Assembly: GCA_963751455.1 (NCBI GenBank)
Contig: CAVVUN010000003.1
Location: 288,001 to 352,000, forward strand
From: Nitrospirota bacterium
GTDB lineage: Bacteria > Nitrospirota > UBA9217
Reading direction: 5' to 3'
DNA: 64,000 bases
The translations under genes were made by a program, and so were the position numbers. Of the stretch, positions 14,055 to 19,088 are shown in pieces (the stretch's first letter is position 1; each line of letters starts with the position of its first letter). The notes beneath the pieces were generated by a model. The model was not told where the DNA came from. It did not search any database and saw nothing but the letters and a program-made list of their open reading frames with translations.

Positions 14055-15302
14055 TTACCAGGCTCCGCCGTTTGAGAGGACAAAGATATCGGCAACGGGA
14101 GTTCCGTCGGCATTCACAAACCTGCCGTGGATATCGCCGTATTTCTGCTGATCAGGATAATTGTTTCCAATCAGCCCGTAACCCCATGCCGCAAAATACC
14201 GATGATTAACGCTGTCATAGGCAAGCGTCGGATGGCGGTCCCCATGGTAATCGGAATGTGACAGCATGAGATTGGCGCTCGATACGGCATTGTCTGCAGT
14301 CCCGTCTGCGGCAAGCGCCTGGCCGTATATGCGTTCATTGCCCAGGGTGTTGTCGCCATATATAATGAAGTATTTTTGGCCGGCGGGGTCATATGCGGAT
14401 CGGTGATATAAAACATTGCGTTCACCGGTTGAGATCGTAAGGAAGGTGCTGAACGGACCTCCCGCTGAATTCAGAACTTGTCCTTTGAGGGAATAGACTC
14501 CGGTGTCCGGATCGGATTCTTCCCATGTGACCAGAAATCTTGAATTGATCGTGTCACGGGCTGCAGACGGCCGATATTGCAAGCCGCTCGCTGCAGATAT
14601 CAGGAATTCCGGAACAGCAAACGAACCATCCGGGTTGATGATGCAGCCTCGTATCCCGTGGCCGCCGCTTTCCCAGGCACAGAAGAACCTATTATTGATG
14701 CCGTCGTATATTAGCGCAGGAGAGACGCCTGCTGCTGCGGTCTCGGAGACTATTATTTGACGTCCGGCAAGCACGCCGTCCGCGGTTATACCTTGAGCGC
14801 TCAAACTGTCAATGTTCGAGAAATGTCTTTCTCCCCATACGACCAGAAACGAGCCCTGGGCATCATCATAGGCCGCTGACGAACACCCGGGGAACGATGC
14901 ATTTCCGGACACGGAAAAGGATGGCCCGTACAGGGTTCCGTCTCCGTTTATAAGCTGTCCGTAAACGGCATTTGATCCGGTCCAGACGACAAGGAATTTC
15001 TGATGAAGCCCGTCATAGGCTGCTGAGGGGCAGAAATATTGGGAATCGGCTTCGGAAATCGTGAGCTCAGCGCCGGTCGGTGCTCCCTCATTGCCGACGA
15101 ACCTCCCCGAAATACGCCCTTCATTCTTTTTCCCGAATCTCTGTTTCACATATACTGCAAAAAACCTGTTGGCTGTGTCATCGTAGACAGCGGCCGGAGC
15201 AGATGCGCCGCCTGTATCCGACGTTCCTCCCGGACACGCGTTGAGCGTGAGGCACAAACAGAACAGTACCCCGATAGAGACTATTTTTGTTTTTGTCGGC
15301 AT
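14055..15302 (-). CDS. lipoprotein with repeated beta-propeller-like blades
   Basis: LNAC lipobox; repeats of the form PsaAYD...FLVVW...YGQ/ING..DG; GAGGAGG RBS. Confidence 0.8.
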   Translation of the reverse strand: MPTKTKIVSIGVLFCLCLTLNACPGGTSDTGGASAPAAVYDDTANRFFAVYVKQRFGKKNEGRISGRFVGNEGAPTGAELTISEADSQYFCPSAAYDGLHQKFLVVWTGSNAVYGQLINGDGTLYGPSFSVSGNASFPGCSSAAYDDAQGSFLVVWGERHFSNIDSLSAQGITADGVLAGRQIIVSETAAAGVSPALIYDGINNRFFCAWESGGHGIRGCIINPDGSFAVPEFLISAASGLQYRPSAARDTINSRFLVTWEESDPDTGVYSLKGQVLNSAGGPFSTFLTISTGERNVLYHRSAYDPAGQKYFIIYGDNTLGNERIYGQALAADGTADNAVSSANLMLSHSDYHGDRHPTLAYDSVNHRYFAAWGYGLIGNNYPDQQKYGDIHGRFVNADGTPVADIFVLSNGGAW

Positions 15303-15416
15303 CGTTGATGCCTCCTCGGTATTTCTATTTTTTCTCTGTGTCTGCGGTGCGCTCTGCGGCACAGTGTTCCACTATATTGGATCTCTGCGGGCGCAGCAGT
15401 TCCGTCCCCGGTAAAG

Positions 15417-16511
15417 CTACCACAGAATTCCCGCCATCACACCAGCCGTGATAGTCTGCCCGAGCTGCCCGAACGCGCCGGGAGTGCCTTTTCTGTCATA
15501 AGAAGCAACCTGCAGCGAGGGATCCACGTAGAAATTATACGGACCAAAAAGCATTTTATAACCCGTATGAATATTCGCTTCGGTCAGGAAAGTTTTCCCT
15601 TTCCCTGTTGTTACAAACGGTGTCCCAAGGTCGTCTTTCCAGGTGCCCTCAACCCACCAGCGGCCGACACCGAGGCCCATATACCAACCCTGTTGCGCGC
15701 GCCCGCCGGGATAGAAGCGGGCCCCGATTTCCGCGCCCATCCCGCGCGCTGTTTCAGCATACGATTCGGTGTCGCATCGATAGGCCACGTACCCGATTTT
15801 CGCGTACGCAGCCATGAAGCGGAAGACGGTTATTTCGGGGGATAGTGAGAAGGTATATCCGAAGTCATCATACGCATCCGTCATAAAGCCCGATACTCCG
15901 AAGCCAAGGGTATTCTTCCCGGCCAATGCATTCTTCGGTTCCTTCTCAACGGGTTGTTGGACTGACTTTCTGCCTGCACGGGCTGCGGTCTCGCTGGTTG
16001 CTCCGGCTCCACTGTTCACGACGCCGCCCGATATCGTATTTGCTATCTTATCTGTAATTTCGTCGCTTATCCCGTTTATACATCTTTTCCAGCTTCTTTT
16101 TGACCTTTCCGCAATCTGTCCGGATGCAATCGTCTCACTGCTTTTTTCGAGGACATAATCGACGGATACCTTTGCACTCCGGCCAAACGGATGTAAAAAA
16201 CCGAATTTCAAGTAAACGAGATTATAAGCAAGAACATAACGATCAGGTTGCTTCTTCTGGTCTTCATCATCGGAAGTGACAACGTTAAAGCCGCGCGCAT
16301 TCAGCTTTTGAGCGATGGATCTTTTCAGCCTTGCATCGATCGCGCGTTGCTGGTCCCGGTGCGAGCCCTCGGTCTGCGCGGTTATAGTGCTTCTCGAAAC
16401 GAGCAGGATCGTCTCGTCCTGCGAAGGCCCTCCGTTTTCGCCGGCACGGGAAATTCCCTCTAAAAAAAGAAGGGACGAAAGCATAACAACCGAAAGAAAA
16501 AGTTTCATCAT
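15417..16511 (-). CDS. exported protein with probable C-terminal outer-membrane beta-barrel
   Basis: Signal peptide; alternating aromatic beta strands (GARFYP, GWYMGLG); C-terminal Trp. Confidence 0.65.
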   Translation of the reverse strand: MMKLFLSVVMLSSLLFLEGISRAGENGGPSQDETILLVSRSTITAQTEGSHRDQQRAIDARLKRSIAQKLNARGFNVVTSDDEDQKKQPDRYVLAYNLVYLKFGFLHPFGRSAKVSVDYVLEKSSETIASGQIAERSKRSWKRCINGISDEITDKIANTISGGVVNSGAGATSETAARAGRKSVQQPVEKEPKNALAGKNTLGFGVSGFMTDAYDDFGYTFSLSPEITVFRFMAAYAKIGYVAYRCDTESYAETARGMGAEIGARFYPGGRAQQGWYMGLGVGRWWVEGTWKDDLGTPFVTTGKGKTFLTEANIHTGYKMLFGPYNFYVDPSLQVASYDRKGTPGAFGQLGQTITAGVMAGILW

Positions 16512-16551: not shown

Positions 16552-17028
16552 TCAGGCAGCTACTGTTTTAAATACGGCCGTGGAACCGGCGGTAAGATAT
16601 ATTTTTTGTCCAACGACATTCTCTGCGTCATCGCCCATGCGCAGTGTGTACTCCTTGTCCGGCTCCAGATCGGATGAGGGAGTCACCGTTATTGTACGCG
16701 GCGTATCCCACGTTTTGACGAAGATCACTGGAACATAGCTTGAATCCGCCAAAAAAACAGTTGCAGGCGCGGATGTATTCATGTCATCGGTAAATTCGAT
16801 CGTAAATTTTGTATGGAGAGGAATATTTTGATTTATTGGATTCTTCTGAAGCAGCATTGTCCGTGATTGATCATCGAGAAAATACATCCCGCTGACCATG
16901 GGACCGACCAAAACCGACCCCGGTCCGTATTCGCCGCACGCGATCGGGGTCCCGAGAAGAAGGGACGCGGAAGAGAGGGTTGCAAAGCGTATTAAAAATT
17001 CCCGCCGTGAATAATCGTGAGGATTCAT
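16552..17028 (-). CDS. Tat-signal lipoprotein with YG motif and Ig-like (Big_5-like) domain
   Basis: SRREFLI; PIAC-GEYGP; IEFTDDMN...ITVTPSSDLEPDKEYTL. Confidence 0.85.
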   Translation of the reverse strand: MNPHDYSRREFLIRFATLSSASLLLGTPIACGEYGPGSVLVGPMVSGMYFLDDQSRTMLLQKNPINQNIPLHTKFTIEFTDDMNTSAPATVFLADSSYVPVIFVKTWDTPRTITVTPSSDLEPDKEYTLRMGDDAENVVGQKIYLTAGSTAVFKTVAA

Positions 17029-17051
17029 ATGACGCCGCCTTTGGAAGACCC

Positions 17052-17531
17052 TTATACGGTTACCGTTTTAAAAACGGCTGTCGCGCTCTCGGTCAGCCAC
17101 AGATTGTAGCCTCTCGCGTCTTTGGTGTCATCACCAAGACGCAGCGTATATTCAGTATCAGGCGCCAGATTCTCTGCGGGGACCACCGTTAACAGACGGA
17201 CCGTCTCCCAGACTTTATTGTCGCATCCGACAGAGGTATTGGCAGGACCGGTCAGAGAAACCGAGGCCGGCGTCGCGGTATTCATGTCGTCGGTGAACTC
17301 GATCGTAAATTTTGTCTGCAAAGGCACGTTTTGAATGTTCTGAAGCAGCATGTTGCGCCCCTCGGCGTCGAGAAAATAGATGCCGCTCACCATGGGATAC
17401 TCCTGTTGGGAGCCCATCGGGCCGTAACAGGCCGTCGTGGTCACGCTGAGCATCAGCGCACCGGACGAAAGATAAGCGAACTTCTTTAGAAATTCCCTGC
17501 GCGAATAATCATCGTTCATCATGGATTCCAT
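17052..17531 (-). CDS. Tat-signal lipoprotein with YG motif and Ig-like (Big_5-like) domain
   Basis: SRREFLK; TTAC-YGP; IEFTDDMN...LTVVPAENLAPDTEYTL; paralog of 16552..17028. Confidence 0.85.
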   Translation of the reverse strand: MESMMNDDYSRREFLKKFAYLSSGALMLSVTTTACYGPMGSQQEYPMVSGIYFLDAEGRNMLLQNIQNVPLQTKFTIEFTDDMNTATPASVSLTGPANTSVGCDNKVWETVRLLTVVPAENLAPDTEYTLRLGDDTKDARGYNLWLTESATAVFKTVTV

Positions 17532-18627
17532 CCTCCTGACCGATTTTATCGAGGCAGCAGAAGCCGGCGGGGCTGCTGTCCTGGTCCAATAAGTGGAAGC
17601 CGCCGCCTTCGCAAAGGACCCAGTGCTCGCAGTCTCCGCACTGATGAGAAAACGTCTTCCTTCTGTCGGCGCGGTACCGTGAAAAACCGTTTTTCCAGAT
17701 ATCGATAAAGGGCGTTTCGCTGATATTCCCCTCTATGAATTTTCGCGAGACGCTCGGGCAGCCCGTTACCTTGCCGTCATGCAGTATGCTCCCGATAAGT
17801 ATCCCCGAACCGCAATAATGGAATTCATCCCGGACAACGCACTCCCATTGCGGCCCCCAATAGCCTTCCTCGCTGAGATATACACTGATGTCGGTCTGCG
17901 TTGCCCGCTGTTTTGCGATAAAGCCGAGCATCTTTACGTAATCGGCCTTATCAAGCGAAAGCTCTCCGTTGCGTGAAGCCCTGCCTCTTGAAAAAACCGG
18001 CGTGAAACGGACCGCGGGCGCCTCGAGTCGGATCAGCTCCTCGAGGAAGGCATCGAGATGGTCGATGTTGATACGGTTTACGCAGCAAATCACGTCGAAC
18101 TTATTAAAAAAACGGTCTTCGAGCAAATGACGAACAGCGGAGGTGACGATCCTGTAGGAACCTTTGCAATTTCTCAGCTTTTCATGGTCCGCCTCTATGC
18201 CGTCCAGGCTGACCGAGATCGTCTTCAACTGCGCGTTTTTCAAACGCGCGATCATGGGCCCGTCCAGCAGCATCCCGTTCGTGGTAATCCCCCAGTTGTA
18301 GCCAAGACCCGCGGAAAACGCGCCGACGTCGATGATGTCCGGCCGGAGCAGCGGTTCGCCGCCGATAATCGCAAAAGTGCATTTTTCGGCAGGATAATAT
18401 TTCGCTATGGAGCGGAGTTCCCGCCTGATCACGCCTCCGTCGATTTCGTTTGCCAGTGTGGAATCATTTCGAACGCAGTCGCTGCCGCAGTGGAGACAGG
18501 CAAGGTTGCACCGGAGGGTCGCTTCCCAAAAGAGATATTGCAACGGGGTGGAGCGCTTCAGCTGCTCCTTGCGCTCGATAAAAGCTTCAAGCGCTTTAAC
18601 TTTTTGTTCAATGGAGTTCACGGACAT
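17509..18627 (-). CDS. radical SAM/SPASM maturase (rSAM/lipoprotein-system-like)
   Basis: LFWEATLRCNLACLHCGSDC, GGEPLLRPD, ITTNG, SISLDG-like motif; SPASM CGSG...DGKVTGCPS...CGDCEHWVLCEGG. Confidence 0.92.
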   Translation of the reverse strand: MSVNSIEQKVKALEAFIERKEQLKRSTPLQYLFWEATLRCNLACLHCGSDCVRNDSTLANEIDGGVIRRELRSIAKYYPAEKCTFAIIGGEPLLRPDIIDVGAFSAGLGYNWGITTNGMLLDGPMIARLKNAQLKTISVSLDGIEADHEKLRNCKGSYRIVTSAVRHLLEDRFFNKFDVICCVNRINIDHLDAFLEELIRLEAPAVRFTPVFSRGRASRNGELSLDKADYVKMLGFIAKQRATQTDISVYLSEEGYWGPQWECVVRDEFHYCGSGILIGSILHDGKVTGCPSVSRKFIEGNISETPFIDIWKNGFSRYRADRRKTFSHQCGDCEHWVLCEGGGFHLLDQDSSPAGFCCLDKIGQEDGIHDER

Positions 18628-18861: not shown

Positions 18862-19054
18862 GTGGAGCCCCCTCCGGCAGGAGCCGGAGGCTCCCCTCAA
18901 TAACGCGACCTTCCGCCTGCACCAAGCGTTTACGAGTGCGCTTAGCGCGAGTGCATGGCGGAACTGCTAACTCGCGTTTGCACGGCGCTTCATGCCGGCG
19001 CGAGTTAGCGCTTTCCACCCCCGGCGGGAGCCGGGGGATGCCAAGGCGCGGGAT
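18862..19054 (+). repeat. structured multi-hairpin repeat, copy 1
   Basis: Homologous to 36683..36876 and 56506..56654. Confidence 0.9.
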
Positions 19055-19088
19055 TGCGTTCTACAGGGAACAGGAAAGAGGCTATAGC

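Follow-up and report, generated by a model that had tools for sequence, protein, structure and literature searches.

Spliceases excise tyramine (C8H9NO) at XYG motifs, giving an alpha-keto-beta-amide. As far as the accessible parts of the relevant papers go, they comprise the type I enzymes PlpX and PcpX (TIGR04103), which come with a Y protein, and the binary type II enzymes RhaX, RcsX and RasX (PMC11414181, PMC11626197, PMC10533398). The accessible text of PMC11414181 describes non-cyanobacterial spliceases as having no Y protein or RRE and as using a leader helix, and it gives three YG motifs and two splice sites for PcpA, the IYGP of which apparently is not among the splice sites. According to the available portion of PMC11626197, Ser/Cys proteases are inhibited by spliced peptides and not by unspliced ones, and the DYG of RcsA is left unmodified, so that known enzymes do not splice every YG. 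Scott et al. (2022; Chem 8:2659), as represented in the accessible parts of PMC10849128, PMC9811515, PMC11002830 and PMC10533398, found PlpX-like enzymes associated with YG across 189 genera and counted 27 characterized and 939 predicted systems; their survey may include the enzyme lineage described here.

A second described pair is TIGR04133 (rSAM_w_lipo) and TIGR04134 (putative lipoprotein), both hypothetical equivalogs, with members over the cut-off in Bacteroides thetaiotaomicron. One paper names TIGR04134, for type B T9SS domains, which is apparently a slip for TIGR04131. Our literature search, which took in few of the subscription journals, found nothing linking spliceases to lipoproteins or to TIGR04133, and nothing on twin-arginine RiPP or radical SAM lipoproteins or on tyramine excision in Bacteroidetes.

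A radical SAM enzyme gene with two predicted lipoprotein genes

We analyzed a window of 64,000 nucleotides from a Nitrospirota contig (CAVVUN010000003.1), the minus strand of which carries a three-gene cassette that is single-copy in the host genome. The first gene (17509-18627) codes for a radical SAM/SPASM enzyme of 372 aa (P0001), in which Radical_SAM (PF04055) and SPASM (PF13186) both scored above the Pfam cut-offs. Its CxxxCxxC radical SAM motif (C40-C47; 18487-18510) was invariant in 80 homologs, and sequence comparison placed the SPASM region, with GCPS, at C272-C357 (17557-17814). The genes for lipoprotein 1 (156 aa; 17052-17522) and its paralog, lipoprotein 2 (158 aa; 16552-17028), follow. 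Lipoprotein 1 has alternative starts at 17531 and 17519; the start at 17522 has the best GGAGG ribosome-site spacing and agrees with a database protein (P0002). As originally predicted, lipoprotein 1 overlaps the end of the enzyme gene, whichever start is taken, and the paralog comes 23 bp further on (gap, 17029-17051). Scanning the cassette for promoters and terminators gave chance-level results. Solved structures offered no close match (best PDB match, E of 6e-14), and no longer fusion of the lipoprotein family was found among 7991 scored candidates, a weak negative.

The two lipoproteins are about 55% identical and share one layout: SRREFL, a moderately hydrophobic stretch, a Cys after Ala, YGP, and a Big_5 Ig-like domain (PF13205; E of 3.5e-10 for lipoprotein 1, at 17064-17333, and 3.8e-9 for lipoprotein 2, at 16564-16830). 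The leader strings SRREFLKKFA (lipoprotein 1; 17475-17504) and SRREFLIRFA (lipoprotein 2; 16981-17010) combine the twin-arginine pair with a clade-specific FLxx[FY]A motif. Each protein has exactly one YG, the Tyr being Y33 in lipoprotein 1 and Y34 in lipoprotein 2. In lipoprotein 1 it lies in ACYGP, where the residue before Tyr is the predicted lipobox Cys itself (CYGP, 17418-17429); in lipoprotein 2 it lies in ACGEYGP, where Glu precedes Tyr (predicted lipobox Cys and site, CGEYGP, 16921-16938). The sequences and the Big_5 matches bore out the SRREFLK and SRREFLI signals, the two YGP contexts and the Ig-like domains of the original prediction. Its lipobox claim stood in part: the Cys is present in both proteins, but the lipoboxes are atypical (TTTAC, and TPIAC with Pro at -3), and lipidation is therefore predicted only. 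The features of a Tat lipoprotein are present (S/T-R-R-x-F-L, hydrophobic stretch, predicted lipobox Cys), and the host genome encodes TatC, Lgt and Lnt. The predicted absence of a separate PqqD/RRE gene extended to the whole host genome, where PqqD had no match; lack of an RRE is expected here, given that spliceases from outside the cyanobacteria have no Y protein (PMC11414181, accessible text).

We aligned 19 of 20 homologs of lipoprotein 1, excluding a partial one. ACYGP was kept in 14 of the 19, YGP lay further on in 3, and YG was absent in 2. The Cys was near-invariant, and the gene adjacent to the enzyme is thus a predicted lipoprotein; the Big_5 domain has invariant residues of its own. 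A structure model of lipoprotein 1 built on the 19 homologs has a helix at residues 4 to 32, then a low-confidence tether that includes the YGP, and, beginning at residue 44, a confident beta-sandwich (pLDDT >89 from residue 41) that resembles the Ig domains of SbsC and CopC. By this model, a flexible tether is predicted to link the leader helix to the Ig domain and to hold the YG site.

The enzyme is patchily distributed, being present in 6 of 64 genomes of the family; the same locus was found in a same-family genome (G239, locus L087) and in a record named Nitrospirota (L004). The flanking genes, ORFs of 364 and 435 aa downstream and a TolB-like ORF upstream, were rejected as parts of the system because they are absent from related loci, one weak propeller match aside. 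Both downstream proteins look exported, have no Pfam match and have a paralog elsewhere in the genome: the 364-aa protein (15417-16511, minus strand) ends in Trp and is possibly a barrel, and the 435-aa protein (14055-15362, minus strand) has a lipobox-like Cys and repeats. A segment at 18936-19070, which lies upstream of the TolB-like gene, shows 93% protein-level identity to a place on contig C6 and is likely a small repeated element in the upstream region of the enzyme.

Placement of the enzyme among radical SAM families

TIGR04133 was by far the best NCBIfam match of the enzyme, at 278 bits (cut-off, 425); seven other close-clade enzymes scored 290 to 320 bits. TIGR04134 matched nothing in the host genome, and neither lipoprotein matched any other NCBIfam model. 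The predicted likeness to this pair therefore holds in that TIGR04133 is the nearest family, but membership in TIGR04133/TIGR04134 is ruled out by the score and by the partners. Type I splicease membership is ruled out as well: the enzyme reached 105.7 bits on TIGR04103 (cut-off, 725), its partners had no Nif11 match, and PqqD is missing from the genome. The heme b synthase model gave 105.2 bits, and further heme-biosynthesis SPASM models also matched near 100 bits.

At E up to 1e-60 the enzyme has 505 relatives. We fetched related loci with the enzyme itself or with a profile of 80 relatives, and these loci split into a close group (at least 54% identity) and a distant group (33-41%). Among 17 distant enzymes scanned, 14 were above the TIGR04133 cut-off, 2 were partial and 1 (L022) was a basal outlier. 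A first tree had 57 rows and a second had 38, after 6 long branches and 13 redundant rows had been dropped; the rows include one PlpX-family member, a Nostoc TIGR04103 protein that is itself uncharacterized, and the characterized spliceases are not among them. In the 38-row tree, the close group was a single clade (100/100) with TIGR04133 proper as its sister (97/89), and together they joined the PlpX-family/GDL group at 100/96. The joined group holds the Nostoc protein, GDL-type enzymes and two further relatives, and MftC, PqqE, NirJ, AcgM and others fall outside it. A grouping with spliceases, which had been put forward as a check on the original prediction, was thus recovered from the 38 rows, but the 57-row tree left the join without resolution. 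In an AU test of one alternative, grouping with NirJ2/TIGR04053-like rows was weakly rejected (p-AU of 0.04). At the base of the PlpX/GDL group lies an Agathobacter radical SAM enzyme (L098:1513-2667); its gene adjoins an MFS transporter, and a precursor is not annotated.

The enzyme and the Nostoc protein are 28% identical and have in common the strings WE.TL.CNL.C.HCGS, P..S/M.G.A, GY[YFW]GP and GCPS, which were also seen by eye in PlpX, PcpX and RhaX in the accessible supplement of PMC11414181. HCGS is the end of CxxxCxxC with the following Gly-Ser and is common to PlpX-family enzymes. In the SPASM domain, the usual CX3C Cys is replaced by Gly343, His345 two residues on is invariant, and the loop Cys is shifted; the Gly/His change is common to the enzyme and TIGR04133. 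Judged from these sequences, the altered auxiliary-cluster ligands compared with PlpX could mean a different chemistry.

The YG site and its tag in related loci

We searched the loci for a same-strand ORF within 700 bp of the enzyme that has YGP or YGxP in its first 110 aa. Leaving out our own locus and one duplicate, such an ORF was found at 17 of 20 close-clade loci and at each of the 15 flanked on both sides by 500 bp or more; each of the three misses has <100 bp of downstream DNA, and two are possibly one locus. The distant loci gave 48 of 68, or 37 of 43 with both flanks, against a background of 212 of 2157 (9.8%) long host-genome ORFs used as anchors. Since the loci are kin and not independent, these figures are to be read as a contrast and not as a P value.

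A profile of the lipoprotein family found 16 places in 9 of the 64 family genomes. All 11 copies beside an enzyme have YGP, whereas none of the three intact copies away from any enzyme (L125, L134, L129) has YG in the tether. Two of these strays are close kin, one of them in a genome with the enzyme on another contig, so that the strays count as about two independent cases. The remaining two places are decayed remnants (L132/L138, on G087:C9), one with AYGPPP out of frame, and in their 99%-complete genome an enzyme ortholog was not found. That YGP is kept beside the enzyme and missing from strays suggests that the enzyme likely cuts the tyrosine from the backbone before export. The leader motif does not strictly track the enzyme, because two YG-less strays retain RR and FLxxFA. 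As separate observations, the remnants adjoin a two-gene module that, by impression from its translation, resembles a toxin-antitoxin pair, and the three strays adjoin a related gene of about 170 to 230 aa ending in an aromatic residue. Each stray paralog and its neighbor, which could be an outer-membrane barrel, may have been repurposed as a pair.

The tether YG is often repeated, three times in L004 and four times in L013. The residue before it varies (L, V, A, M, C, E or S), and Pro follows YG at 36 of 38 sites. The leading rival to splicing is another radical reaction at the same Tyr of the same substrates, either a cross-link or cyclophane at the ring or a side-chain cleavage with the backbone left unspliced. 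It would fit the long branch, the low identity to the PlpX family, the altered SPASM ligand set and the strictness of the Pro, which is unlike the characterized MYGV, MYGA and LYGS sites (accessible supplement of PMC11414181). However, no second residue is fixed for a cross-link, as both X and the Cys spacing vary; the conserved feature is the Gly after Tyr, as in the splicease rule; and spliceases are the nearest characterized relatives in the tree. On balance, we hold this alternative to be rather unlikely and prefer splicing.

We then compared partners hand-picked from the loci for having YG, 26 from close and 47 from distant (TIGR04133-lineage) loci. RRxF occurs in 24 of the 26 and in none of the 47. 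F[LM]xx[FY][AV] is present in all 26 close partners, two without RR included; the host genome has 20 other twin-arginine candidates, 1 of which carries the motif in its stricter version, xx[FY]A. In the close group, the spacer from Cys to YG ranged from 0 to 26 residues by automatic lipobox calls, a few of which are off; CYG occurs at 8 sites among the 47 TIGR04133-lineage partners. Conservation of RR, lipobox and YG, another proposed check, was seen for the adjacent YG(x)P and, in the close partners, largely for RR, but was incomplete for the lipobox, a call for which is absent in 6 of the 26.

The cargo behind this leader varies. Besides Big_5 proteins, the close-clade partners include Pal/OmpA fusions and short Pro-rich peptides in which YGPP is repeated up to four times; four Calditrichaeota paralogs have a different domain. 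A tag profile built from 24 leader-plus-YG segments returned 111 representatives, with YG in 110 (partly by construction), RRxF in 87 and CYG in 6. Classed by their sequences and not by gene neighbors, the 109 new matches include 31 Big_5 proteins, 13 OmpA proteins, 1 carboxypeptidase-regulatory-like protein and 64 without a Pfam match. The RR-leader/YGP tag is thus portable across Ig, Pal/OmpA and Pro-rich cargo, so that a folded cargo is not a general feature, and nor is a site next to the lipid Cys. The original prediction had explained Tat export by folded cargo; as a general rule this is ruled out by the unstructured Pro-rich partners that carry RR, and it also sits poorly with the lack of RR in TIGR04133-lineage partners and its retention in two YG-less strays. 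Its placement of a ketoamide at or beside the lipidated Cys fails as a rule too, given the spacer range, the rarity of CYG among tag matches and partners without Cys.

Several individual partners deserve description. Three proteins encoded next to enzymes of the same clade (L009:4323-4820, L010:5323-5829 and L011:4413-4922) join the RR leader and YG tether to a peptidoglycan-binding domain of the Pal/OmpA type; of the two scanned, L009 reached 135.9 bits on TIGR02802 and L010 fell just below the cut-off. Two betaproteobacterial partners (L002:6110-6487 and L003:6106-6510) have neither RR nor Cys; FLxxYA is retained in them, and VYGPP occurs once in a chain of low complexity. In the TIGR04133 lineage, the YG partner of a true TIGR04133 enzyme (L023:1547-2116; similar, L067:1159-1731) has a C-terminal domain that is acyl-carrier-protein-like by weak matches, L023 being the one scanned. 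Partners at L021, L031, L056, L078 and L081 have no recognizable lipoprotein signal and are acidic or membrane-tailed with YGPPP, which suggests cytoplasmic or membrane substrates.

The short partners bear on the possibility that these proteins are precursors, from which proteolysis after splicing would free a short active (lipo)peptide, the Ig domain being a carrier only. Many partners are disordered peptides of 60 to 115 aa with repeated YGPPP, and known spliceotides are leader-core peptides (PMC11414181, accessible text). On the other hand, inspection of the close-clade loci looked at brought no dedicated peptidase or transporter to notice, the Ig domain has its own invariant residues, and the Pal/OmpA cargo is intact by its TIGR02802 score. 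We give this precursor scheme a slim chance. It is highly improbable, in our estimate, that YGP does no more than mediate docking or sorting and that the enzyme acts elsewhere, for example on a small molecule or cofactor. The heme-biosynthesis matches and the CopC-like Ig fold would agree with such a role, but the cargo is interchangeable while the tag is kept and even repeated, YG is lost in strays, and no other neighbor in the window recurs in related loci.

Proposed modification and comparison with known systems

The cassette is real and enzyme-coupled, and it is a twin-arginine variant of the rSAM/lipoprotein system. The sequence comparisons support that the partners behave like substrates at YG, and we conclude that the enzyme is probably a tyramine splicease of the binary kind, the substrates of which are exported proteins, most of them with a lipid anchor. 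The identity of 28%, the altered cluster ligands and the YG sites skipped by known enzymes count against splicing. The enzyme would bind the N-terminal leader helix of its partners in the cytoplasm, as RhaX does on the RhaA leader (PMC11414181, accessible text), and excise tyramine at the single X-Tyr-Gly-Pro site of each; Tat export and lipid anchoring of the modified proteins would come next. For Tat, delayed export is a better reading than a folded-cargo need, because unstructured partners also carry RR, and Tat would not be required by the chemistry, because TIGR04133 partners lack RR.

In lipoprotein 1, the ketoamide would form on the residue at which the lipid is predicted to be attached, and splicing would alter the anchor residue itself because X is the predicted lipobox Cys; lipoprotein 2 would carry a Glu-derived ketoamide two residues from the predicted lipid Cys. 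As a bolder and doubtful extension, lipoprotein 1 might be spliced at the lipobox Cys and then diacylglycerylated, cleaved and N-acylated, so that its mature N-terminus would be a lipidated alpha-keto-beta-amino acid, a new lipoprotein anchor. RR-FLxxFA...YGP might at the same time be a portable modify-then-export tag through which envelope proteins unrelated to one another receive electrophilic ketoamides, and the enzyme might control access to Tat much as a proofreading chaperone does. The basis for splicing at this Cys is that CYG is the sole YG of lipoprotein 1, is kept in most of its aligned homologs, and recurs in the TIGR04133 lineage.

Because only spliced peptides inhibit Ser/Cys proteases (PMC11626197, available portion), a tethered hydrolase trap would, by analogy, be the leading function. 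Most speculatively, the ketoamide could be a membrane-tethered reversible covalent trap for Ser/Cys hydrolases of the cell envelope, and the Ig, Pal/OmpA and Pro-rich parts would be interchangeable display scaffolds. If splicing is true, nature would use beta-amino acid ketoamides to modify membrane-anchored proteins of the envelope as well as small peptides. If the lipobox Cys is spliced, the system would test the tolerance of Lgt, LspA and Lnt for a changed backbone and define a new anchor chemistry. The locus also offers a direct and cheap test of the function of the TIGR04133/TIGR04134 pair, that of Bacteroides thetaiotaomicron included, and protein labeling, for which PlpXY serves (PMC10533398, accessible part), could be another use of a splicease that is independent of a Y protein and comes with a short YGP tag and a leader coupled to export.

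Among known systems, the GDL-motif peptide-associated radical SAM enzymes (TIGR03913) fall in the same larger clade, and one GDL precursor (L092) has YG; unlike the system described here, their precursors are small DUF1843 proteins without an export signal, and the enzyme is longer. With the tyramine spliceases our system shares a radical SAM/SPASM enzyme beside XYG substrate genes, the common strings, one clade in the pruned tree and, with the binary ones, the lack of an RRE. It differs in identity and in auxiliary-cluster ligands, in having an activity that is predicted, and in its partners, which are predicted exported lipoproteins with signal peptides, in contrast to Nif11/GG-leader peptides. 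Closest is TIGR04133/TIGR04134, with a sister enzyme clade, the same SPASM Gly/His change, and a neighboring gene for a predicted lipoprotein whose tether, behind the lipobox Cys, holds YG(x)P, in some cases directly as CYG. Our lineage is set apart by its sub-cut-off score, the lack of a TIGR04134 match, RR in nearly all partners versus none, YGP where the TIGR04133 partners mostly have YGxP, Big_5, OmpA or Pro-rich cargo, and a shifted loop Cys (CE[GA][YF] in TIGR04133, EEGYWGPxWEC in the close clade); its hosts include Nitrospirota, Calditrichaeota and Betaproteobacteria. Newly added here are the CYG case, the portability of the tag, the loss of YG in stray paralogs and the decay of the lipoproteins where the enzyme is missing.
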